DNA from: an uncultured Alphaproteobacteria bacterium
GTDB lineage: Bacteria; Pseudomonadota; Alphaproteobacteria; Rs-D84
Length of the DNA stretch: 64,000 nt
Direction of reading: 5' to 3'
Assembly (NCBI GenBank): GCA_949878575.1
Contig: CATLAX010000002.1
Coordinates: 65,378-129,377, forward strand
Of the stretch, positions 17,368 to 64,000 are shown piece after piece. The notes under the pieces were generated by a model. It was not told the DNA's origin, did no database searches, and saw only the letters and a program-made list of their open reading frames with translations. Positions within the stretch are counted from its first letter, which is position 1, and each line of letters begins with the position of its first letter. The position numbers and the translations under genes were made by a program.

Positions 17368-18345
17368 TTAAAATTCAAACCGAACACCCAGCATGATGTT
17401 TGCGTATATCATGTTTTCCGCACTGAACCAGTCGCGATGACGCGTGTCGTCCTTGTTTTCCAGGCTCCACTTTATTTTTGGAATGTACGCCACGCGCGCA
17501 CCAAAATCCAAAAACATGTTTTCCGTCACACCGTAAGAAATTCCGGCGGCAACAACACCGGCAATGTTTGACGAATTTGTTTTTGAACGATAAAACTGAA
17601 CAACGCCATAATCATCCGGTTCGCCAAAATTCTGCAGATCAACGGACGTTGACAAATCACCGTACAAATCGGACAGATTCAACGTCGTTTCCGTATCCGC
17701 GTAACCGATACCGAAACCGACATACGGAATAATCTTGTACAATGGTTTGCGCAGGCCGTCAAAGAAATCATAATACGCCATCGCGCTGATTATGTCTGTT
17801 GAAACTTTTGACTGGGCGCTGCCGCTTTGCGCCATTATCACAACACCGGCCACGTCGCCACCGGTCAGCGCCAGGTCGCCTTCAAACAATGGCGACTCGT
17901 TATACTCCATTTCCGTTATATGGTCCCATCCAACCTCTATACGCCACTGTGGACGGTTTGGTATGGTCCAGCCCAGCGACGCGCCGGCGGCAAACGAAAA
18001 TTCTGAAAAATCATTCGCAGGTTTTACATCCGCCAAATCACCCATGCCCGCATATGCAAATCCGGCACAGCCGCCGCCCTGAACACAGGCATCATAATAC
18101 GCGGCCGATATAACCATGCCGTCGCCCGGGTTTATATAATATTCCGTGGTCAGCGACCCAACCTCATTTTTTATAGACCCGAAACCAAACGACGCACCGC
18201 CGCGCGCCGATATGACAAAGCGAGATCCGTCATCGGAATACCACCCGTCACCCAGATATGTTCCGGGATACTGCCAGTTTGCACTGGCCGGCGCCGCGGA
18301 AAAAATTGATAAAACAGACAATATGCAAAATAAACTTTTTCTCAT
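17368..18345 (-). CDS. Outer-membrane beta-barrel protein, hypothetical
   Basis: Signal peptide MRKSLFCILSVLSIFSAAPASA (start 18345), alternating amphipathic strands, C-terminal ...GVRFEF. Confidence 0.55.
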   Translation of the reverse strand: MRKSLFCILSVLSIFSAAPASANWQYPGTYLGDGWYSDDGSRFVISARGGASFGFGSIKNEVGSLTTEYYINPGDGMVISAAYYDACVQGGGCAGFAYAGMGDLADVKPANDFSEFSFAAGASLGWTIPNRPQWRIEVGWDHITEMEYNESPLFEGDLALTGGDVAGVVIMAQSGSAQSKVSTDIISAMAYYDFFDGLRKPLYKIIPYVGFGIGYADTETTLNLSDLYGDLSTSVDLQNFGEPDDYGVVQFYRSKTNSSNIAGVVAAGISYGVTENMFLDFGARVAYIPKIKWSLENKDDTRHRDWFSAENMIYANIMLGVRFEF

Positions 18346-18401
18346 GTTCGGCATTATATCACAAAATGCCCCACGATGAAAACAGATTTTAAGCCGTGAT
18401 T

Positions 18402-20165
18402 TTATTCCTGAATAAATCCGCCCGACTGCATTTTCCACAACCGTGCATATTCGCCGCCGCGACGAACCAGGCGACGGTGGCTGCCCTGCTCTATTATGCG
18501 GCCGTGGCGCATGACAACAATACGGTTCATGTTGCGCAGCGTTGACAGACGATGCGCAATGGCGATTGTCGTGCGGTTATGGGCCAAAGCCTCAAAAGAA
18601 CGCTGTATCGCCGTTTCTGTTTCCGAATCAAGGGCCGATGTCGCCTCGTCCAGAATCAATATAGGCGCGTTTTTCAAAAATGCGCGCGCGATTGCGACAC
18701 GCTGGCGCTGGCCGCCGGACAACTTTATGCCACGGTCGCCCACGATTGTATCATACCCGTTTTCCGACCGGCGTATAAAACCATCCGCCGCGGCCCGCAC
18801 GGCGGCGGCGCGAATCTGATCCGGTGTGGCGTCGGCACATCCATATGCGATGTTTTCCGCAATGGTGCGGTTGAACATCGTCGGTTCCTGGGGAATAAAG
18901 GCAATGGCGCGCCGCAAAGAATCCTGGGATACATCGCGTATGTTTTGGCCGTCTATCAGTATTTCGCCGCGCGTCGGATCATAAAAACGCATCAACAGGT
19001 TTACCAGCGTTGTTTTTCCCGCGCCGGACGCACCGACCAGACCGACGCTTTGCCCCGGTTCTATGGTCAGATTGAAATCACGCAAAATCCAACGCTTGTT
19101 ATACTTAAACCAAACGTTTTTAAATTCTATCTTTCCATGCGGCACCTGCAATGCGGGCGCATTCGGCGCATCTGTTACGTCTATTGGCACCGCCAGTTCG
19201 TCATACGACTTCTTTGCACTGCCCAGCATGTCAACAATGGCCGGCACCTGGTCAACTATACGGGATATTGTTCCCATAACGCTGAAAAACACGGATGTGG
19301 TAAACACAACCTCTGACACCAGCAGGCGCCCGCGCATAAACAGCCACACGCACAATATCATGGTGGCGCCAAACGCAATATCCCAGACCAGGTTAGGCAC
19401 GGCCCAAAACAAGCGCTGAACAAAATAAGAATGAACACGCGCGGCGATGCTTTGTCCGCGGGCCTGTTTTAAATAACGGCGTTCGCTTTCCGCGCCGGAA
19501 AAAAGTTTTACAACGGAAAAATTAGCCAGACTGTCCACTATTTTCCCGGCCAGACGGCTGTTTGAATCACTGGCGTTTTTAGACGCGCTGCCCATCGGCC
19601 GCAACAGCAGCCCACCGTAAACAATTCTAAACACAAAAACAAACGCAAATATAATCGCCACATATGCGTTTATGCTTAAAATCAACCCGACATTTACAAA
19701 TATGACCGCCAGCGCCCCCGCCATTTCCATGAAATTGACAATGGCCAGGAATCCGGCTGAAACGTAATTTATCTGGGAATTTATTTTGCCGGCCATGCGC
19801 CCCGACCAGAAAGACATTGACTGGTGCTGGACATAATCGGTCAAAACCTCTGATATTTGATTTTCTATCCGCGGCTGCCAGCGGGCGCGGGTGATGGAAC
19901 GGACAATAACACACAAATCCAGCAACAGCAGCGTTGACACTATTATCAATATGGTCGGCAGTGCAAACTGAACCAAATTCTGGCCGGCCGCGGGCGTCTT
20001 TTCAAACAGAGATATGAACATGCGCTGAAAATTCGGGAACAGCACGCCTTCGGCCATTACGCACATAAAGGCCAGCGCCCATACAACCAGCAGCCCCCAA
20101 TGATTACGGGCCGCGTATTTGAAATAAAATCCCCATAAAGATTTTGGCAATGTTTTTTCCGACAT
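18402..20165 (-). CDS. ABC transporter permease/ATP-binding protein (MsbA-like exporter)
   Basis: Six N-terminal TM helices. Walker A GASGAGKTT, ABC signature LSGGQRQRVAIARA, Walker B ILILDEATSALD. Confidence 0.85.
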   Translation of the reverse strand: MSEKTLPKSLWGFYFKYAARNHWGLLVVWALAFMCVMAEGVLFPNFQRMFISLFEKTPAAGQNLVQFALPTILIIVSTLLLLDLCVIVRSITRARWQPRIENQISEVLTDYVQHQSMSFWSGRMAGKINSQINYVSAGFLAIVNFMEMAGALAVIFVNVGLILSINAYVAIIFAFVFVFRIVYGGLLLRPMGSASKNASDSNSRLAGKIVDSLANFSVVKLFSGAESERRYLKQARGQSIAARVHSYFVQRLFWAVPNLVWDIAFGATMILCVWLFMRGRLLVSEVVFTTSVFFSVMGTISRIVDQVPAIVDMLGSAKKSYDELAVPIDVTDAPNAPALQVPHGKIEFKNVWFKYNKRWILRDFNLTIEPGQSVGLVGASGAGKTTLVNLLMRFYDPTRGEILIDGQNIRDVSQDSLRRAIAFIPQEPTMFNRTIAENIAYGCADATPDQIRAAAVRAAADGFIRRSENGYDTIVGDRGIKLSGGQRQRVAIARAFLKNAPILILDEATSALDSETETAIQRSFEALAHNRTTIAIAHRLSTLRNMNRIVVMRHGRIIEQGSHRRLVRRGGEYARLWKMQSGGFIQE

Positions 20166-20231
20166 GATAATTTACGCCCCCAAAAAGCAAGGATTAATGT
20201 TATACACCACAAACAAATCCAAATCAAACGA

Positions 20232-21995
20232 TTATTCCACTATATCGCGGAAAATTTCCGCAGGAATGGTTCCGCCGGTAATTTTTGAATCCATGGGCGA
20301 AAAATCATCGTTTCCAACCCATACGCCGATAACCAGCGAATCCGTCGCACCGACAAACCACGCATCACGGTTGTCATTGCTGGTGCCGGTTTTTCCCCCC
20401 AGAACACCCGGCGCGTTTGCACGGCGCCCCGTGCCGGTCGTCACGACATCCGCCAACATTTGCCGCATATATTCCGCGGTATCCGCACTTACCACCTGCA
20501 ACACATCAGACGGATTGCGCTCATATAAAACATTGCCGGCCGGATCCGTTATCTTTGTAATGGAATAAGGCCGCACGGATCCGCCGTCGTTCCATATAAC
20601 AGCGTATATTGTCGTCAAATCCAACAGACTCATTTCCGAGGCACCCAAAACAGTTGAATACTCGCGCCGCAAACGGGTTCCCACCCCCAGACGCCCCGCC
20701 ATGTCCAGAACGGAATCTATGCCGTATTCTTCTGTCAGCTTTAACGGCACGGAATTGACACTTTTTGCGAACGCCACAGACAGCGCAATATCGCCATAAT
20801 AACGCTGATTGTAATTTTTTGGCGTGTAATCGCCTATTGCAAAAGGCGCATCGTTTACAATGGATTCCGGCGTCATGCCGCGTTCCAGCGCAACCAGATA
20901 TGTCACCGGCTTAAAACTGCTGCCGGGCTGGCGCGCCGCCAGTACCCGGTTATACTGGCTGGCCTGATAATCGGCACCGCCGGACATTGCACGAATGGCC
21001 CCGTCATGCGACATTGCAACCACAGCCCCCTGATATTCACCTATATGTGACGGCAAAATCGCGGCAATATGGTCTTGTAATTCCATATCCAGCGTAGTAT
21101 AAACATACAAATCAGACGAAAATCCCCCAAGACGCGACCGTGTTTCATCCAAAACAAAATCCGTCCAATATCTGTACAGATTTGTATCCGGGGCCGGGGT
21201 CGCCGGGGCCAGTTCAACAGCCGCCGCACGCGCCTGGTTCAACGTTACATATCCCTGGCGAACCATTTCCTGTAAAACGATGCGCGCGCGTGCAATATTT
21301 TTATCCGGATTCTTCATGGGGCTGTACGTTGTGGGCGCCTTTAACATTGCGGCAATCTGAGCCGCCTGGGCCAGGCTAAGCCGATTTGCCGGAACCTGAA
21401 ACATGACGCGGGCCGCCGCATCAATTCCGCGCATTCCGCCAACCAGCGACACCCGGTTCATGTACAAATCCAAAATCTGATTCTTGTCAAACCTGTTTTC
21501 CAGCCAGTATGACAATATCAGTTCCTGAATCTTGCGGGAAATTTTCTTTTCACGCGATAAAAAAATGTTCTTGGCGGTCTGCTGGGTTATGGATGAACCG
21601 CCCGCCGCAATCCGCCCATGGCGCAAATTTGATACCATTGCACGTGTTATGCCGCGCATGTCTATGGGACCGTGCTTAAAAAAACGCTTGTCTTCTATGG
21701 CGACAATCGCCTGCCATACGTATGGGGGGACGCTGTCCGTTGACACCGGCACCCCCATTATGCGGCCGGCACTGCGGATTTCCGTGCCGTTCTTGTCCAG
21801 AAACATTATCGCCGCCGGACGCGTTTCATGCAATATGGCATCCAGCGACGGCATCTGCAGAAACACAACGACAACATATACCAACACCCCCGCCAGCATC
21901 AGCCCCATCAAATTCAAACACCACAACAGCGCCCGCAGTTTTAAAGACGGGCGCTTTTTTTCCACAGTTTCCATATTATCTTTGATACGCGGCAC
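20232..21995 (-). CDS. Class A penicillin-binding protein (transglycosylase/transpeptidase), compact form
   Basis: GT51 motifs EDKRFFKHGPID and GGSSITQQ. Transpeptidase motifs SSFKP (SxxK), SVN and KTGT. Confidence 0.85.
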   Translation of the reverse strand: MPRIKDNMETVEKKRPSLKLRALLWCLNLMGLMLAGVLVYVVVVFLQMPSLDAILHETRPAAIMFLDKNGTEIRSAGRIMGVPVSTDSVPPYVWQAIVAIEDKRFFKHGPIDMRGITRAMVSNLRHGRIAAGGSSITQQTAKNIFLSREKKISRKIQELILSYWLENRFDKNQILDLYMNRVSLVGGMRGIDAAARVMFQVPANRLSLAQAAQIAAMLKAPTTYSPMKNPDKNIARARIVLQEMVRQGYVTLNQARAAAVELAPATPAPDTNLYRYWTDFVLDETRSRLGGFSSDLYVYTTLDMELQDHIAAILPSHIGEYQGAVVAMSHDGAIRAMSGGADYQASQYNRVLAARQPGSSFKPVTYLVALERGMTPESIVNDAPFAIGDYTPKNYNQRYYGDIALSVAFAKSVNSVPLKLTEEYGIDSVLDMAGRLGVGTRLRREYSTVLGASEMSLLDLTTIYAVIWNDGGSVRPYSITKITDPAGNVLYERNPSDVLQVVSADTAEYMRQMLADVVTTGTGRRANAPGVLGGKTGTSNDNRDAWFVGATDSLVIGVWVGNDDFSPMDSKITGGTIPAEIFRDIVE

Positions 21996-22088
21996 AAGGC
22001 CTCCTTGGGTGCGTTGCCAGAATTATATCACAAACACCTTTTATCACGCCAGTATTATAATAAAAAAGCCGCCATGCGGCGGCGGCAA

Positions 22089-22352
22089 CTATGACTGTAC
22101 GGGGGCCGTATTCATACCGGCATCATTCTTGGGGAAAAATTTCAGGAAATCATCCAACGACGTTCCTGTGGATTCAAGTATTTTTGCCAGACTGTGCGTT
22201 GACGGCCAGCGGGGTTTGCCGTAACTGGTCCAGCGCTTGCTTTTATTAAACGTTGTTGCATCCAGCCCACTTTTCTTTGCCAGACCGGAACACGATAAAT
22301 TTAAACTTTGGGCAAAACTGTCTATGGCATGCCATAAATCCAAATGGTTCAT
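22089..22352 (-). CDS. XRE-family helix-turn-helix transcriptional regulator (putative)
   Basis: 87 aa from MNHLDLW. The stretch LSCSGLAKKSGLDATTFNKSKR is an HTH-like pattern. RBS aaagggaggg lies 8 nt upstream. Divergent from the multi-HTH gene. Confidence 0.5.
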   Translation of the reverse strand: MNHLDLWHAIDSFAQSLNLSCSGLAKKSGLDATTFNKSKRWTSYGKPRWPSTHSLAKILESTGTSLDDFLKFFPKNDAGMNTAPVQS

Positions 22353-32007: not shown

Positions 32008-32701
32008 TGTTCACCATCCGCAGTGTGTTGTTATATGTAATATCGGCAATATAGTCGGGCGCAGCATTCAAACACGCGGCAATTTGTACCATTGCATCCC
32101 GGATATTGTCAGGCGCCGGCGCATTACCGTCCGTTTCCACCAAAATTTGACGTTCCGGTGTTGCGGCGACGGCCCGCAATGCACGTTCCCGCATCGGGGC
32201 GCGATATGAAAACCAAACGCCGTCCCCAAATATTTCAATCAATGCACGAATAATTTCAGGGGCGGCCGCAAACCTGTGTATTACGACGTGTTTCGGATGC
32301 GGCCCCGTTTTTAACAGACGCAGCAAGGTATCCCATGCATGCACGCAATGAATTTGCGCCGGCCTGTTCAATTCCGCGGCAATTTCCATCTGGGCGACAA
32401 AGGCCGACATCTGGCGGTCAAAATCCGGATGTGTACGATCCAGACCTATTTCGCCAACCATCGCACCCGGATTCATGTTTAAATTTTCACGCATACGCCC
32501 ATTCCAACCCGGGGCGGCAGCGCATACATGCCACGGGTGCACGCCAATGGCGGCATAAATCCGTTTATTGCAATGCGACGCCGCCAACAGCGACGCCCAG
32601 TCGTCTTCACACGCGGCATTACATACAAACGCACCCGGACCGGCGTAGCCCACAAAGTTTAAACGATTATAATGACAATGCGCGTCAATAAATTTATCCA
32701 T
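31991..32701 (-). CDS. TatD family metal-dependent hydrolase (DNase)
   Basis: MDKFIDAHCHY is the N-terminal HxH metal motif, with further conserved His/Asp residues. The start is moved to MDKFID (32701) from the ORF listed at 32800. Confidence 0.7.
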   Translation of the reverse strand: MDKFIDAHCHYNRLNFVGYAGPGAFVCNAACEDDWASLLAASHCNKRIYAAIGVHPWHVCAAAPGWNGRMRENLNMNPGAMVGEIGLDRTHPDFDRQMSAFVAQMEIAAELNRPAQIHCVHAWDTLLRLLKTGPHPKHVVIHRFAAAPEIIRALIEIFGDGVWFSYRAPMRERALRAVAATPERQILVETDGNAPAPDNIRDAMVQIAACLNAAPDYIADITYNNTLRMVNNGQIE

Positions 32702-58441: not shown

Positions 58442-58522
58442 AATAAAATCTCCTTGTGTTTAAAAATCGTAGCAAATTGATTTGACATTTGGCAAGAAGA
58501 AATATAGAATAAGTGTTCGCAT

Positions 58523-58598
58523 GGGGTTGTAGCTCAGTTGGTAGAGCACTTGCATGGCATGCAAGGGGTCGTCGGTTCGAGTCCGATCAGCTCCACCA
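58523..58598 (+). tRNA. tRNA-Ala (anticodon GGC)
   Basis: GGGGTTGTAGCTCAGTTGGTAGAGC... with a G3:U70 pair, anticodon loop AUGGCAU and T-loop GGTTCGAGTCC. CCA encoded. Confidence 0.85.
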
Positions 58599-58779
58599 AA
58601 ATTTCACTTGCGGCAGGAACATATTTTTTCTTGCATCAAATTGCGATTTGTGATATAGTTCAATACATGAGGTTCGGGATTTTGCCCGAATTTTTTATTG
58701 CCCAAATTCATTAGGATTACGGGCTTTTTTTATATAAAAAAATTTATACCCCAACCCACTATAACCAAAAGGAATATAT

Positions 58780-59745
58780 ATGAGCGACAACAAAGTTGTT
58801 TATCCAAATAATGCCGGCGGCGTTAATACTTTTTATTTTGAGTTCCCTTTCTTTCAGGACAGCGACGTACAAGTATACAAAAACGGAGTACTGTTGGCAT
58901 CATCAGAATATGCGCTGCATAAAAACCAGGGCGGCGCATCCGACGACTATCCCTATATCGGGGGCAGCATAGAGTTTACAAACGCACCAAAGGCAAACGA
59001 CAGAATCACGATTAAGCGCAGGCTGACTCTGCAGCGCACCGTTGATTATCAGCCAACCGCCCAGATTTTACCAACATCTTTGAACCGTGATTTTAATTTC
59101 ATCGTGGAATATATGAAGGAACTGGAAAACATATACAGGGCGGCAATTGATGCCGGCGAAATAGACTGGGATGAAATTACGGCAAATATAACCGACTTAA
59201 ATCAGAGCCTTGGCGAAGCGAATCAGGGTGTTGCCGGATTGAATCAACAGCTGTCGTCCGTCAACAGCCAGATAGACAATTACAAGCTGGCATTTGCCGC
59301 ATTAAAACTGGGCGGGAACAAAATGACCGCATACTGGGACCCAAACTCAAATACAGCAAGATATTCGTATATAACACCATCATATGGCGCGGTGTTAAAC
59401 TCCACCACACCGGCCACGGCCGCCCAGAATATCACCGGCAAGGCCCAGCCAACGGTTGACACCACAACCTGGTACCGCCTGCGCATGGACGGATGGGCGG
59501 AACAAGGCGGCTATAAACAGACCAGCAGTGCGATACAGACAGTCGTATTTCCATTGCCGATGAAAAACACCGACTATAACGTATTCATAAGTGTCAGTGC
59601 GGCGGACAGCCCCCAAATAGAAACAGGGTATTATAAAAACAAAACGGCCACGCAGATGTATCTTAGCAAAGTGTGGCTGAATCAGGGAACCCCCGTCCTG
59701 ACGGGCGGGACCGTATCATGGAAGATACAGGGAATGGCGGCCTGA
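58780..59745 (+). CDS. Phage T7-type tail-fibre N-terminal domain protein (tail fibre-like)
   Basis: The N-terminal GGVNTFYFEFPFFQDSDVQVYKNGVLL...ITIKRRLTLQRTVDYQ...LNRDFNFIVEYMKELEN follows the conserved T7 gp17 N-domain pattern. RBS aaaaggaatatataATG. Confidence 0.55.
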   Translation: MSDNKVVYPNNAGGVNTFYFEFPFFQDSDVQVYKNGVLLASSEYALHKNQGGASDDYPYIGGSIEFTNAPKANDRITIKRRLTLQRTVDYQPTAQILPTSLNRDFNFIVEYMKELENIYRAAIDAGEIDWDEITANITDLNQSLGEANQGVAGLNQQLSSVNSQIDNYKLAFAALKLGGNKMTAYWDPNSNTARYSYITPSYGAVLNSTTPATAAQNITGKAQPTVDTTTWYRLRMDGWAEQGGYKQTSSAIQTVVFPLPMKNTDYNVFISVSAADSPQIETGYYKNKTATQMYLSKVWLNQGTPVLTGGTVSWKIQGMAA

Positions 59746-59798
59746 AACCCGGCGCTATAAAAAACAACGCCATGGGAAACCATGGCGTTGCAGCCCTG

Positions 59799-62111
59799 TT
59801 AGCAGGCGTCCAGTTTCTGGCGCCAATGGGCCTTGCGCTGCTTAAACGATTTTATCCCGCCAAACGTTATTGTCTGCAAGATTTTATATTTTGCAATTTT
59901 ACGCTTTATTTTGCGTTTGGACATACCAGCACCGGAATTTGCATTCATTCGCCATTCAACCGTTCCATGCATAAGCTTATGCAACATAATTTCATAAAAC
60001 GGGGTTTTGCGTGCAAATTCCCAGAAATAATGCGCATTGTCACGCCACGGCTCGTTCCACGGCTTGATACTGCTGGCGTAATGCAGGATAAACGGATTTT
60101 TTAACAAATCCATTAAGGTTTCATATCCCAACGACCCCTTGGCCCAATACCAGTGAAAAGCCGCGTTCCATTCAACATTCCATTTGCCGTCTATGTAATG
60201 TATATGGCGGCCGTTCGCAACGGAATTCATAACATCCTGGTCTACATATAACGGATTACCCAACTCCCTTAAACGTACCAGGCATTTATCCATAACATTG
60301 TCTTTCCGGCATTGCTTTACATTCCAAATCATGACACCGGCCTGAAAATAATCACGCACATCGGTCATTTTTAAAGTATTTTTAATATAAGGCATCACAA
60401 AATTATTCGCCCAGGTATGTTTGACACATCCATCCGTCTCAAACCATTTTTCATGCGCCACACCCCACCAGTTGTCGCCAATATCAACATCAAACAATTC
60501 CGCTACATCATGCAGGGCCACCATATCCACATCCAAATACAGAACCTTGCCGTATTTTGCAAATATCTGCGGGATAAAGAATCTAAAGTAAGTATCCTGT
60601 GAAAAATGCTGGCCGGTGCATAGCATGGACATGTCTATGCCGGATATATAATCCTTGGCGTCAATCAAGCGCACGGAAATGTTCGGCGTCGCCATTGACA
60701 TTAGCAAGTGCTTGTTTTCATCGGAAACATCGCTGGATGATATGACAACGTCATAATTGCGGTTCTGACTGGCGTTGTCCTTTATTGACTGCAGCATCAC
60801 ACCACAATTCGGTGCATAATTATTGTTTGTCGCCATAAAAATCGTCACCGCATTGTCAAATACCGGCTGAATGCATGCGAACTGCGGTTTGGGTTTGCCG
60901 GACACCTTTTCAAAGTGCAGCCCGGACTTTAATTTTTTAGTCTTCTTGACAGTAATCAAATTAAACAGGCGCCATTTGACACAATCTGTTTTATAAACTT
61001 TGACCATTACCGGCATACCCATCAGACGCCATCCAGTCACCCCGGTCTTTTTATATATCGCCCAGAACAAATTGCCGTATTTTCCAGGTGTAACTTTCAG
61101 ATATTTCATAACAGTGAAATAATCCCCGGCGGCCAATGCCGACAGAACACCGTAAAAATATTCCGATTTGTACTTTTCCAGCGCATCAATACCGAATTTA
61201 TGCAGCAGTGTTCTGTATAAATCCAGCATTTCTATTTCCATATTCTCGTCATAGACATACGAAATTGAAAAGCCCAAGTATTCATACAAATCCTTGATAA
61301 AATTAATGCTGTTTATTTCATCCAACAAATTATTTTTCTGCAAAAAATCAAACTGGGCCGCCATTGAATGATAACAGTCAAATTCTTTGCCGGAATTTTT
61401 CTTGTTATATGTCAAATCCATTATACTGTTGCGGCGGACGACATAATTATATACAACCCTGTCCAAACCAAACATCGTCTTCATAACCGCATAACACTGC
61501 GACATAAAACATGTGTCATCATGCTCGTACCCGTCGGGGAAACGAATGTCATACCGGCGGATTATATCCATACGGAACAGACGCCCCCACAAAACAACAC
61601 CGCACATGTCGTGCCTGTTTTTCATTTTATCCAGCAAAAACGTACCGGTTATCTTTAATTTTTGCCATTCCACACAGGCAACCCTGTCCTTGTTTTTTGT
61701 ACCGTTTTCCCAAACCACGCGATTATCGGCAGACACCATGTCCGCATCGTTGGCCAGCATCGCCCCGAGCATCTGTTCAACGGCATCGTCGTCATACCAG
61801 TCGTCACTGTCACAGAACATCAGCCATTTTCCGCGGGCCGCGGCCAGGCCGGCATTTCGTGCCGTCGCCGGACCGGAATTTTTCTGTGATATAACCCGAA
61901 CGCGCCCGTCGCCCGCCGCCAGACGGTTTAATTCATCCAGACTGCCGTCGGTGGAACCGTCGTTTATACAAATAACCTCTATATCCCCATACGTTTGCGC
62001 AAGCAGGCTGCCGACACTGCGTTCCAAATATTTCTTGCAGTTATAAACCGGCATTATAACCGATACCAGACCGGCCGACTTTTTCTGTTGTTCCGTCATG
62101 CTAAAATCCAT
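59799..62111 (-). CDS. Bifunctional glycosyltransferase (N-terminal GT2 + C-terminal GT8 family domain)
   Basis: GT2: VSVIMPVYNCKKYLERSVGSLLAQTY...DSDD. GT8: YFRFFIPQIF...LYLDVDMVALHD (DxD) ...NWWGV. Confidence 0.75.
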   Translation of the reverse strand: MDFSMTEQQKKSAGLVSVIMPVYNCKKYLERSVGSLLAQTYGDIEVICINDGSTDGSLDELNRLAAGDGRVRVISQKNSGPATARNAGLAAARGKWLMFCDSDDWYDDDAVEQMLGAMLANDADMVSADNRVVWENGTKNKDRVACVEWQKLKITGTFLLDKMKNRHDMCGVVLWGRLFRMDIIRRYDIRFPDGYEHDDTCFMSQCYAVMKTMFGLDRVVYNYVVRRNSIMDLTYNKKNSGKEFDCYHSMAAQFDFLQKNNLLDEINSINFIKDLYEYLGFSISYVYDENMEIEMLDLYRTLLHKFGIDALEKYKSEYFYGVLSALAAGDYFTVMKYLKVTPGKYGNLFWAIYKKTGVTGWRLMGMPVMVKVYKTDCVKWRLFNLITVKKTKKLKSGLHFEKVSGKPKPQFACIQPVFDNAVTIFMATNNNYAPNCGVMLQSIKDNASQNRNYDVVISSSDVSDENKHLLMSMATPNISVRLIDAKDYISGIDMSMLCTGQHFSQDTYFRFFIPQIFAKYGKVLYLDVDMVALHDVAELFDVDIGDNWWGVAHEKWFETDGCVKHTWANNFVMPYIKNTLKMTDVRDYFQAGVMIWNVKQCRKDNVMDKCLVRLRELGNPLYVDQDVMNSVANGRHIHYIDGKWNVEWNAAFHWYWAKGSLGYETLMDLLKNPFILHYASSIKPWNEPWRDNAHYFWEFARKTPFYEIMLHKLMHGTVEWRMNANSGAGMSKRKIKRKIAKYKILQTITFGGIKSFKQRKAHWRQKLDAC

Positions 62112-63094
62112 CTCAATTTCCTTTTTATAAATTGTTCCGCGTGATAATACACAACCGCACAGGCGATACTTATTCCCAACGCCGCCAGCCCCGCCCCGGC
62201 GGTTAATATTTTTGGATAATGAACCAGTTTCATGCCGACAATCATGAATATGTAAACATACAGCGTATACCGGCTGACATACGTAATTTTGTCACTGATT
62301 TTGTTCAAAGTATTTGATACAAGGTCGTTGTTTTCAACCATCAACAACAGCATGACACCCGACGCCAGAACAAATGTCAGCATCGTTTCATCGCCGCGCC
62401 ATCCGACAAGCAAAGAATATATCAGATAAGCCATCGCAGCGGCCTGTAACGCCGTGCGCACCACACGCGATTTGACGGCAATTTTTACATTGGCCAGCAG
62501 CATTCCCACGCCGATAAACGTAATACCGCGCACAAACGGCAGATTCAACAATCCGCCAAAGACAAAATTTGGGTTGCCAAACGCCTGTTGGACCCCATAC
62601 TGGCTTATACAAACATAGCCCAGAAACACAATCGGCGCCATGCAGGGAATAAAATTCCTGCCCGCTATTTTGCGCAACAGCGCCCAAAACACAAAGCCCC
62701 AGAAATACGCGTTTATAAACCACGCCACCGGACAGCCCGTCAATGCGGCGTTTCCGATTGCGCCATCCAACAGGAACAAACGCTGAACCAGATTATGCGC
62801 CATTGCACCGACATGCTGGTGACACAGCATGTCCCATACGACACCGGCGATGACAACAGGCGGCATTACATACAGATATACTTTCTTTATCGCCGGACCT
62901 TCGCCCAGTTTGTCCAGACTTTTTATCATAAAAAATCCGGCGATTATGAAAAACAGGTTTGTCGCCCAATCCGCATTCAAGTACAGCGGCGCAAAAGCCC
63001 AGTGTCCCAAAAATGCAATCAAAATCAACGGAATACGTAAAAATTCTATACCGGTAATCCTGCGCTTTGCCGTTTCCATATTGTTCCCCCACAA
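62096..63094 (-). CDS. Acyltransferase family 3 (O-acyl/acetyltransferase, OafA-like) membrane protein
   Basis: 332 aa with 10 TM helices. The N-terminal GIEFLRIPLILIAFLGH is typical of Acyl_transf_3. Confidence 0.7.
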   Translation of the reverse strand: MWGNNMETAKRRITGIEFLRIPLILIAFLGHWAFAPLYLNADWATNLFFIIAGFFMIKSLDKLGEGPAIKKVYLYVMPPVVIAGVVWDMLCHQHVGAMAHNLVQRLFLLDGAIGNAALTGCPVAWFINAYFWGFVFWALLRKIAGRNFIPCMAPIVFLGYVCISQYGVQQAFGNPNFVFGGLLNLPFVRGITFIGVGMLLANVKIAVKSRVVRTALQAAAMAYLIYSLLVGWRGDETMLTFVLASGVMLLLMVENNDLVSNTLNKISDKITYVSRYTLYVYIFMIVGMKLVHYPKILTAGAGLAALGISIACAVVYYHAEQFIKRKLRWILA

Positions 63095-63098
63095 AATA

Positions 63099-64000
63099 TC
63101 AGCACCGGGCCAGTTCCTGCCGCCAGTTCGCCTTGCGCTTTTTAAATGATTTCACCATCCCCAGCGTTAAGGCCTGTAAAATCTTGTATTTCTTTATTTT
63201 ACGCTTAATGCGGCGAATTTTGGATTTATTCGGCTTGTTATAATACCCCGTTGCCGCAATTGACGCCATTGCCTTGGCCAGTATTTTTTCATAATACGGG
63301 GTTTGACGCGCATATTTCCAAAAATATTCCGCATAATCATTCTGGGGCTGATTCCACGGTCTGCTGTTGCCGCAATAATGCAGGATATACGCCCGCCCTG
63401 TCCACCAGACGGCCGTTTTATACGATTCCGTCACAGAATAATCGCCCCAGTCGTATTTCGGATTCCACGCCACGTTCCAATACGGCGAGAGCCAGAACAC
63501 GTGCTTGCCGTTCGCAACGGCATTCATTACGTCCTGGCTTAAAAACAATAACTGTTTGATTTCCTGCAGCTTGTCCAGGCATTTTGCCGTAACCTTATCC
63601 GCACGGCATCGCTTTATATTCCAAATCATCACGCCCGTTTGAAAATAATCATATACGGAATCCATTTTCAAAACGTTTTTAAGATGCGCCGCAACAGTGG
63701 TGGTGCCCCACGATTCGTACGGGGTTGAACATACTGTCGCAACACCCTTGTCATATGTTACGCCCCACCAGTTGTCGCCGATGTTCGTGTCATATAATTC
63801 GGCAATGTCGCGATTTGCGACCATGTCCGCATCCAGATACAAAACCTTGTCATAATTTGCAAAAATTTCGGGAATAAAATATCTGTAATACCTTTCTGCA
63901 CCAAATTTGGCGGATGCGTTGACAGCGTTCAAATCAGCATCGCCGACATAATTTTTTATATCAATAATACGCACGGAAACGTTCGGTGTCGCCATTGCCG
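63099..64000 (-). CDS. GT8-family glycosyltransferase, 5'-truncated by window edge (paralog of C-terminal half of 59799-62111)
   Basis: YYRYFIPEIFANYDKVLYLDADMVANRD...NWWGV with a C-terminal basic tail KRKIKKYKILQ. About 80% nucleotide identity to 59799-60720. Confidence 0.65.
   Translation of the reverse strand, partial: AMATPNVSVRIIDIKNYVGDADLNAVNASAKFGAERYYRYFIPEIFANYDKVLYLDADMVANRDIAELYDTNIGDNWWGVTYDKGVATVCSTPYESWGTTTVAAHLKNVLKMDSVYDYFQTGVMIWNIKRCRADKVTAKCLDKLQEIKQLLFLSQDVMNAVANGKHVFWLSPYWNVAWNPKYDWGDYSVTESYKTAVWWTGRAYILHYCGNSRPWNQPQNDYAEYFWKYARQTPYYEKILAKAMASIAATGYYNKPNKSKIRRIKRKIKKYKILQALTLGMVKSFKKRKANWRQELARC

Follow-up and report, generated by a model that had tools for sequence, protein, structure and literature searches.

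A solitary T7-type tail-fibre gene beside a polysaccharide locus of Candidatus Enterousia, the probable receptor-binding part of a podovirus-derived, gene-transfer-agent-like particle

The fibre gene of the Rhodobacter capsulatus gene transfer agent (GTA) RcGTA, rcc00171, lies far from the head-tail cluster and directly beside exopolysaccharide (EPS) genes, and it evolves faster than that cluster (PMC5026251). Its product, the fibre Rcc00171, binds capsular polysaccharide (PMC10218006). The GTA of Caulobacter crescentus is controlled by anti-termination through GafZ (PMC11150451). Here, we describe a solitary gene for a T7-type tail-fibre-like protein of 321 amino acids (aa) in a 64-kb window, that is, the whole stretch of 64,000 nucleotides (nt) analysed, from an uncultured alphaproteobacterium of the lineage Rs-D84 (contig CATLAX010000002.1). 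The locus is like that of RcGTA in that the fibre gene stands apart from the head-tail cluster and adjoins polysaccharide genes. We propose that the fibre is probably the separately encoded receptor-binding part of a chromosomally fixed, podovirus-derived, GTA-like ('viriform') particle of Candidatus Enterousia. A preliminary description of the locus had left three options, namely a prophage remnant, a domesticated fibre, or the edge of an island; selection, a head-tail cluster kept by the lineage and the leader of the gene together favour the domesticated fibre.

Domains, family and selection of the fibre protein

The gene and the predicted parts of its product lie in the window as follows.

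58780-59745, plus strand: tail-fibre-like gene, 321 aa plus stop (open reading frame (ORF) list)
58780-59070, plus strand: N-terminal domain, aa 1-97, T7 gp17-type, presumed particle-docking (AlphaFold, Foldseek)
59071-59316, plus strand: helical shaft, aa 98-179, presumed trimeric coiled coil (AlphaFold)
59461-59742, plus strand: C-terminal beta domain, aa 228-321, a lectin-like tip of the gp53/R-pyocin-fibre type, presumed receptor-binding (Pfam, Foldseek)

Searches of Pfam, NCBIfam and PDB sequences with the single protein gave nothing usable: Phage_T7_tail (PF03906) was not matched even at E<=10, the gathering score not being reached, and Gp53-like_C (PF21882) was matched below threshold (E=0.013, 16.4 bits vs a cut-off of 24.9). 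PHROGs returned weak 'tail protein' matches over aa 6-109, a scan against GTDB genomes found no match, and a word-indexed homologue search with the single protein yielded one relative only, 98% identical. By tblastn against phages, a 29% match (E=6e-7) was found to a Pelagibacter podophage ORF lying 3' of two very large ORFs, which is the usual position of the fibre gene in a podophage.

An exhaustive phmmer search recovered 771 relatives, many of them 270-350 aa long and similar over their full length. Their alignment consists of a conserved N-domain, a length-variable helical segment and a C-domain with the motif WYRKYKSGWVEQGG; 17 of 54 aligned homologues match PF03906 at E<=0.01 (best 2.7e-9), and 14 of the 54 match PF21882 (best 1.6e-6). 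Run against the PDB, the family profile matched the fibre 'orf22' of Legionella phage LME-1 (9efk_AE, 1e-8), the N-terminus of a Klebsiella tailspike, AP22 gp53 over the C-domain (4mtm, 0.026) and coiled coils. An AlphaFold (AF2) model built on 112 sequences has a mean predicted local distance difference test score (pLDDT) of 77, with confident N- and C-terminal beta domains (N-domain pLDDT about 80-95) and the helical region 98-179 between them, formed by helices at aa 98-124 and 130-179. With Foldseek, the modelled N-domain matched LME-1 9efk_AE (1e-6), Carin-1 8ck1_B, 8i4m_M, T7 7ey9_a (7e-4) and the T7 gp17 N-terminus 7boz_a, all at probability 1.00; for 7boz_a, the template-modelling (TM) score was 0.64 on the target. 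The matched structures are fibre N-termini docked on podophage tails, those of LME-1, Carin-1, P-SCSP1u, HRP29 and T7. The C-domain matched the R2-pyocin fibre 6cl6_A and AP22 gp53 4mtm (both E=3e-4, probability 1.00), as well as R1-pyocin fibre tips and H-type lectins. An hhalign comparison with residues 9-115 of a provisional T7 gp17 sequence was in register but weak (E=0.021, probability 2%).

On this family-level and structural evidence, the window protein is a T7-type tail-fibre homologue. The earlier picture of a gp17-type N-domain followed by a beta-rich C-domain is therefore correct in substance, by indirect and structural evidence only. The preliminary description had made its assignment depend on similarity to the Phage_T7_tail profile; such similarity is formally absent for the single sequence, and this is overridden by the family and the fold.

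Between the fibre gene and its 98% variant (P0001), we counted 13.5 synonymous and 7.5 non-synonymous differences, giving a ratio of non-synonymous to synonymous rates (dN/dS) of 0.15; the gene is intact and, by this comparison, kept under selection and not decaying. Mean pairwise identity in the family falls from 61% in the N-domain to 50% in the helix and 34% in the C-domain. Such a gradient is usual where a fibre is anchored to a conserved particle and meets a receptor that varies. The N-terminus carries no signal peptide or membrane segment, which fits cytoplasmic assembly rather than secretion.

The same C-domain tips long fibres on 45 IMG/VR contigs, as found in a viral-contig scan with a tighter family alignment, and one phage contig (L091) encodes an 848-aa fibre with both the N- and the C-domain of the window protein. 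On four rumen phage contigs of IMG/VR (L101, L108, L115, L117), two to four consecutive ORFs stand in tandem, each ending in a gp53-like C-domain; these look like multi-fibre or fibre-cassette loci.

A podovirus-type head-tail cluster in related genomes

The Frr encoded beside the tRNA-Ala of the window is 84-98% identical to the Frr of 80 species-level metagenome-assembled genomes labelled Alphaproteobacteria or Candidatus Enterousia; by this marker, the host is Candidatus Enterousia. This lineage of the order Rs-D84 has genomes smaller than about 1 Mb and is predicted to be symbiotic or parasitic (PMC12306168). Related contigs and loci that we compared with the window are labelled L002-L154.

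A T7-type portal (PF12236, 7.5e-74) was found at the edge of L005, and tblastn detected the portal at 75-97% aa identity in 32 searched loci, nearly all among the 80 frr loci. A complete head-tail cluster of ~12 kb, with constant gene order, is present in L028, L059, L067, L129 and L136-L154. It was annotated on L028 and on contigs found through the nozzle protein, and we found no published description of it in a literature search. From its start, the cluster reads as follows.

Start: 136-aa and 73-aa ORFs, scaffold (PF05396), 112-124-aa ORF
Next: major capsid protein of 273-279 aa (phrog_3437, 3e-73), 75-aa ORF
Next: adaptor-like tail protein of 172 aa (phrog_394), 571-aa nozzle, 115-117-aa ORF
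Next, in some genomes: fibN, 181-186 aa, a gp17-type N-domain alone
Next: ATPase half of the terminase; on the opposite strand, a 221-235-aa gene, a 335-aa regulator with two helix-turn-helix (HTH) motifs, and dnaB
Next: nuclease half of the terminase (PF22530), portal, Phage_Bbp19, 85-aa ORF

The cluster is flanked by housekeeping genes, with lplA or rpmG on one side and frr, recG or a gene for an M48 peptidase on the other, and its internal dnaB passes the cellular equivalog model and fails the phage model. No integrase, polymerase or other replication gene, or lysogeny module was found in the annotated related loci, so that the cluster has no integration, replication or lysogeny module of its own; the two-HTH regulator is present. 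A fixed syntenic cluster under purifying selection was thus seen in the related Enterousia genomes: between two species, dN/dS is 0.02 for the portal and 0.05 for the C-terminal terminase gene (terL-C), and in a more distant species pair the capsid dN lies below that of the adjoining lplA. By this signature, the cluster is a domesticated, vertically inherited, GTA-like element.

The nozzle ties the cluster to the same phages as the fibre. Its homologues form 1075 clusters, nearly all of 571 aa, on contigs of up to 832 kb, and the nozzle model matches the nozzles of Carin-1 (3e-25), LME-1 and T7 (gp12), the phages that also give the best matches to the N-domain of the window fibre. Moreover, the in-cluster fibN of L028 and the N-domain of the window fibre share 42% identity, and the family profile hidden Markov model (HMM) scores fibN at ~1e-32; against PF03906, fibN itself reaches E=1.5e-3 (18.7 bits vs a cut-off of 25.2). 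In related genomes fibN lies between the nozzle and terminase genes, and the window fibre has no adaptor or nozzle neighbours. The clusters of L028, L129, L138, L139 and L146-L154 carry fibN, and those of L059, L067, L136 and L137 are without it. One 238-kb contig holds both a fibN-less cluster and a solitary full-length fibre gene ~95 kb away.

The head genes bear on an earlier suggestion that the protein might be a tailocin-like receptor-binding protein. We rejected a tailocin fibre: the partner cluster has capsid, scaffold, portal, terminase and a podovirus nozzle, pointing to a head-containing particle.

Some further observations concern the cluster. The large terminase is split in a species-conserved way (L028 2598-7369; also L059, L067, L129, L136-L139 and L146-L154) into an ATPase of 199-212 aa and a nuclease of 223-307 aa. 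The two halves are ~3.3 kb apart, and the opposite-strand stretch between them holds the 221-235-aa gene, the two-HTH regulator and the cellular dnaB. L129 (IMGVR_UViG_3300029904_000363, 12,186 bp) is filed in IMG/VR as viral and is an Enterousia chromosomal fragment bearing the cluster with the cellular dnaB inside; a domesticated element has thus been filed as a virus, and the system accounts for the viral label of at least this one chromosomal fragment. In the window, an 81-aa ORF at 22110-22352 (minus strand) is 57% identical to a small ORF of L146 that precedes lplA and the head-tail cluster there by two genes. Among the genes flanking the cluster, this one alone has a homologue in the window, the other flanking housekeeping genes being absent from it.

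Polysaccharide linkage, leader and tRNA junction

The surroundings of the fibre gene comprise the following features.

58482-58510, plus strand: promoter-like site of tRNA-Ala, TTGACA-17-TAGAAT (consensus scan, 11/12 matches)
58523-58598, plus strand: tRNA-Ala (GGC) (ARAGORN and Rfam, 65 bits)
58631-58659, plus strand: promoter-like element of the fibre gene, TTGCAT, 17 nt, TATAGT, with a TGTG extension (ATTTGTGATATAGT; read from the sequence)
58669-58699, plus strand: leader hairpin 1 (GAGGUUCGGG / CCCGAAUUUU) followed by a U-run, intrinsic-terminator-like (RNAfold minimum free energy and centroid)
58700-58731, plus strand: leader hairpin 2 (GCCC.AAUUC / GGAUU..GGGC) followed by U7, a second terminator-like element (RNAfold)
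58767-58773, plus strand: ribosome-binding site AAAGGAA, 6 nt 5' of the ATG (read from the sequence)
59764-59791, no strand assigned: 12-bp palindromic hairpin between the convergent fibre gene and polysaccharide operon (terminator scan), predicted terminator of the minus-strand operon, possibly acting in both directions
59799-62111, minus strand: 770-aa GT2 + GT8 glycosyltransferase, last gene of the convergent polysaccharide operon (ORF list; Pfam on identical contigs)
62096-63094, minus strand: Acyltransferase_3 (Acyl_transf_3), sugar O-acyltransferase type (ORF list; Pfam on identical contigs)
63099-64000, minus strand: DUF4422/GT8 glycosyltransferase gene, 3' part, running off the window (ORF list; Pfam on identical contigs)

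The ORF list, ARAGORN and Rfam agree with the preliminary description on an intact 321-aa fibre-like ORF 3' of tRNA-Ala, the sole long ORF there, and gene calls with Pfam bear out its placement between tRNA-Ala and a glycosyltransferase/acyltransferase locus. That the gene has no phage neighbours in the window also stands: the family HMM matches this one ORF only, and tblastn with the proteins of the related clusters found no portal, nozzle, capsid, scaffold, terminase, lysozyme or Mtd homologue there. As the window annotation covered part of the ORFs, 'solitary' holds within these HMM and tblastn tests. In a public assembly collection, 97 indexed blocks contain the identical fibre protein.

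On identical contigs (L002-L004), the polysaccharide operon extends at least 7 kb past the window, with GT2, epimerase and UDP-glucose dehydrogenase genes. A convergent minus-strand polysaccharide operon lies directly 3' of the full-length fibre gene in 7/7 independent contexts (the window, L085, L088, L090, L143, L144 and L145). The content of the operon varies (GT1, GT2, GT8, GT11, DegT, FdtA, PIG-L, Caps_synth, RgpF, pyruvyl transferase, nucleotidyl transferases), and the upstream neighbours of the seven fibre genes are all different, including tRNA-Ala, tRNA-Thr (L090), grpE, metK, restriction genes and others.

The second constant feature is the leader. The upstream architecture is common to 7/7 solitary fibre genes examined and to the first cluster gene in two species: ATTG...TTTGTGATATAAT stands first and a ribosome-binding site last, and the 85-120-nt leader between them contains one to three hairpins, each with a U-run behind it. 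The hairpin stems differ in sequence between loci while their pairing is kept (RNAfold), and Rfam found only the tRNA in the region of the fibre leader, plus sub-threshold chance matches. The promoter motif of the fibre gene has four matches in the window, and 40 copies were found in all Enterousia loci compared. Long terminator-bearing leaders precede fibre genes, Mtd_N fibre genes, Phage_lysozyme genes and genes that join a MuF fragment to GH108/PG_binding_3, with about three exceptions; short hairpin-free leaders with the same promoter precede housekeeping genes, e.g. PBP1a. By this comparison, the terminator-bearing leader, and not the promoter motif, is the specific part. Since a permissive terminator scan of the window was too noisy (187 matches, with hairpin 2 missed), it was unusable as a control. 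Fibre genes, Mtd_N fibre genes, lysozyme/MuF genes and the cluster share one promoter and terminator-leader architecture at dispersed loci, as read from their sequences, a pattern that points to scattered late genes switched on by read-through or anti-termination.

Within the window, the extended -10 motif (T/G)TTTGTGATATAAT also occurs at 22022-22035 and 18353-18366 (both minus strand). These copies precede PBP1a (20232-21995) and a signal-peptide protein starting near 18340, with short, hairpin-free leaders. The motif appears to be the strong housekeeping promoter of the organism; because it also stands 5' of PBP1a and the exported protein it is generic, and we rejected it as a specific mark of a regulon.

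Several other genes have the same leader. Mtd_N proteins of 184-216 aa with a different C-terminal domain are encoded in L020 (12320-12895), L024 (4597-5163), L034, L041, L042, L055, L058 and L080, with acetate kinase (ackA) 3' of them on the same strand. A second small solitary fibre type joins Mtd_N (PF18454) to the same gp53-like C-domain (L005 19513-20028, L006, L007 and L015 3360-4142); in L015 it lies directly 3' of the portal, convergent with GT4 and hexapeptide-transferase genes. Glycan linkage as a rule for Mtd_N fibres was considered and rejected: most precede ackA, and only L015 and L005-L007 adjoin sugar genes. Dispersed genes with this leader also encode a Phage_Mu_F-like fragment fused to GH108 + PG_binding_3 or to Phage_lysozyme, or else lysozyme by itself; the products are candidate lysis enzymes or enzymes carried on the particle.

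Same-leader MuF/lysozyme-type genes, 285-aa type: L017, L055, L061, L065, L088
Same-leader MuF/lysozyme-type genes, 379-aa type: L020, L036, L048
Same-leader MuF/lysozyme-type genes, also: L013, L029, L051

L088 also holds, at 17607-20954 near the fibre homologue P0188, four Glyco_hydro_108 genes, a DUF488 gene and, at the locus edge, a gene for a 671-aa reverse transcriptase (RVT_1).

The polysaccharide linkage can be read in another way, with the protein as a stand-alone domesticated lectin or adhesin, at the cell surface or released, that acts independently of any particle, e.g. in attachment to other cells or to the cell's own polysaccharide. Such a role would suit a gene that is invariably solitary and adjacent to polysaccharide genes, a lectin-like C-domain, purifying selection, and a lineage (Enterousia/Rs-D84) with reduced genomes for which obligate symbiosis or parasitism is predicted (PMC12306168). 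However, the protein shows no signal peptide, lipobox or membrane anchor, and no secretion partner was seen; conservation is highest in the particle-docking N-domain, of which the head-tail cluster encodes a paralogue; and the leader architecture is common to the capsid cluster and lysis-type genes. We therefore regard a particle-independent lectin as unlikely.

The tRNA-Ala invites a third reading, in which the gene is a functionless leftover of a decayed podophage, as a prophage remnant or cargo of a tRNA-Ala island. Blastn synteny with L005-L028, in a comparison set of 80 related species, runs from 50 kb to 58598-58604 of the window and ends exactly at the 3' end of tRNA-Ala. In the relatives checked, tRNA-Ala is followed by tRNA-His and housekeeping genes, and no tRNA-His lies there in the window. 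Four independent assemblies break 210-240 nt 5' of the fibre gene (starts of L004 and L140-L142), which suggests strain-level structural variation. One homologue also follows a tRNA (tRNA-Thr, L090), and an integrase-bearing element lies upstream of a homologue in one strain (L086). Nevertheless, the ORF is intact with a dN/dS of 0.15, its GC content and skew are not atypical, and homologues, likewise intact, are found in many species at differing places on the chromosome, each time behind the same leader and with a glycan operon downstream. Over 58 kb on the upstream side of the fibre gene and 14 kb on the downstream side, the searches gave neither an integrase nor any other phage gene, and no att-like repeat of the tRNA-Ala 3' end exists in the window or 10 kb downstream; an integrase, a bounding direct repeat and phage neighbours, the marks of an integrated prophage or tRNA island, were thus all missing at the locus. 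With no att repeat and a dN/dS of 0.15, a prophage remnant is quite improbable. The synteny end and the assembly breaks, together with the missing 3'-end repeat, characterize tRNA-Ala as a rearrangement junction rather than a demonstrated att site, so that the significance given to it in the preliminary description holds for strain variation and not for integration. That description had also suggested an island that runs on past the window, and had advised a search beyond 64000 for phage genes and for a directly repeated tRNA-Ala 3' end. These suggestions found no support: the next 10 kb on identical contigs hold only glycosyltransferases, epimerases and UDP-glucose dehydrogenase, and neither phage genes nor the repeat.

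Two observations belong to the junctions. The sequence TCCACCAAAATTTGAC at 32130-32145 agrees in 15/16 positions with the 3' end of tRNA-Ala and its flank. This near-match, 26 kb upstream and within coding DNA, was dismissed as chance. In L086 (3631-6448), a tyrosine integrase, an excisionase-like HTH_17 protein and a serine recombinase are encoded upstream of the fibre homologue P0209 (one strain), and L085 and L087 have restriction-modification and SocA_Panacea genes at the place of this element; the upstream side of the fibre gene is a variable hotspot.

Finally, a host fibre acting on infecting podophages, as an assembly-poisoning decoy in defence or as a host-range cassette for phages or satellites, would agree with the C-domain being common on rumen and gut phage fibres, often in tandem cassettes, with the two-domain fibre of L091 and with defence genes upstream of one homologue (L085), but we know of no established precedent for a host-fibre decoy mechanism, PADLOC-type evidence was neither sought nor found, and the genus-wide conserved chromosomal cluster with the common leader is a simpler partner, which makes this explanation very improbable.

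A proposed GTA-like system and its place among known systems

The GTA-like particle that we favour would work in the following way. The lineage keeps the ~12-kb cluster with scaffold, capsid, adaptor, gp12-type nozzle, split terminase and T7-type portal, as seen in relatives. The fibre would trimerize through its coiled coil, and its gp17-type N-domain would dock at the adaptor/nozzle junction as in T7, LME-1 and Carin-1. The variable, lectin-like tip would, judging from its fold, bind the surface polysaccharide of the target cell. The fibre gene is held at the distal end of a strain-variable polysaccharide locus; a change of surface glycan would thereby carry the matching fibre along, and targeting would stay on kin. 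Expression would start at a strong housekeeping-type promoter followed by one to three intrinsic terminators in the 85-120-nt leader, and read-through or anti-termination would switch on the cluster, lysozyme, Mtd-type fibre and fibre genes together.

Several points weigh against this proposal. Neither the window nor the next 10 kb contains the head-tail cluster, whose presence in the genome of the window is deduced from relatives; the particle itself is a prediction from genes. The terminase is split, and neither a small terminase nor ejection proteins were recognised in the cluster, which, for all its purifying selection, could thus be unable to package DNA. In some clusters an N-domain protein is already present and may occupy the docking site. 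The window protein is an outlier of its family (42% N-domain identity, one close relative) with which direct Pfam searches fail. The promoter motif is generic, the control sample for leader specificity is biased to frr and fibre loci, and no GafYZ homologue or other anti-terminator was identified.

A wider version can be offered tentatively, at somewhat less than an even chance: Enterousia may keep an undescribed multilocus GTA of podovirus ancestry (T7/LME-1/Carin-1), comprising the cluster with its terminase split around dnaB, lysozyme/MuF and Mtd-type fibre genes and the gp17-type fibre, with one anti-termination switch and glycan-coupled delivery. The single switch is suggested by the terminator-bearing leaders in front of all loci of the system. 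To our knowledge, the well-studied GTAs all derive from long-tailed phages. If correct, a podovirus-derived GTA-like system would be an independent domestication, and the very small genomes of a reduced, uncultured and probably partner-dependent gut lineage would still be paying for such machinery. The linkage of fibre and polysaccharide genes parallels rcc00171 and suggests a rule by which the receptor-binding proteins of domesticated particles are co-inherited with the glycan they recognise. The terminator leader would also serve as a sequence signature by which the parts of the system still missing could be located.

Among known fibres, those of T7 (gp17), LME-1, Carin-1 and P-SCSP1u are like the window protein in N-domain fold, helical shaft and C-terminal receptor-binding domain. 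T7 gp17 has 553 aa and the window fibre 321 aa, and the window protein has no direct Pfam match; its tip is of the gp53/pyocin-fibre type, unlike that of gp17, and it is encoded alone in a bacterial chromosome beside polysaccharide genes, whereas the gp17 gene follows the internal-core genes of a phage. The tips of AP22 gp53 and the R-pyocins (4mtm, 6cl6) have the C-domain fold in common with the window fibre, which carries the family motif WYRxxxxGWxEQGG. However, those fibres attach to contractile-tail baseplates through N-termini unrelated to that of the window fibre. With Bordetella phage BPP-1 (Mtd, Bbp19), related Enterousia loci share Mtd_N fibres and Phage_Bbp19 3' of the portal; unlike BPP-1 Mtd, the window protein has no Mtd_N domain and no linked diversity-generating retroelement. 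The Caulobacter GTA offers a likeness in late-type phage-derived genes behind intrinsic terminators, with dispersed loci that are coordinated, seen in Enterousia as sequence architecture only. The resemblance to RcGTA lies in gene arrangement: Rcc00171 (DUF2793, beta-helix) is not homologous to the window fibre, and RcGTA is siphovirus-like with an HK97-type module, whereas the putative Enterousia machinery is of the podoviral T7/LME-1 type. What is new is that a fibre gene set apart from its presumed particle cluster, an arrangement known from GTAs, here has podoviral ancestry, in a lineage for which such systems have so far gone undescribed.

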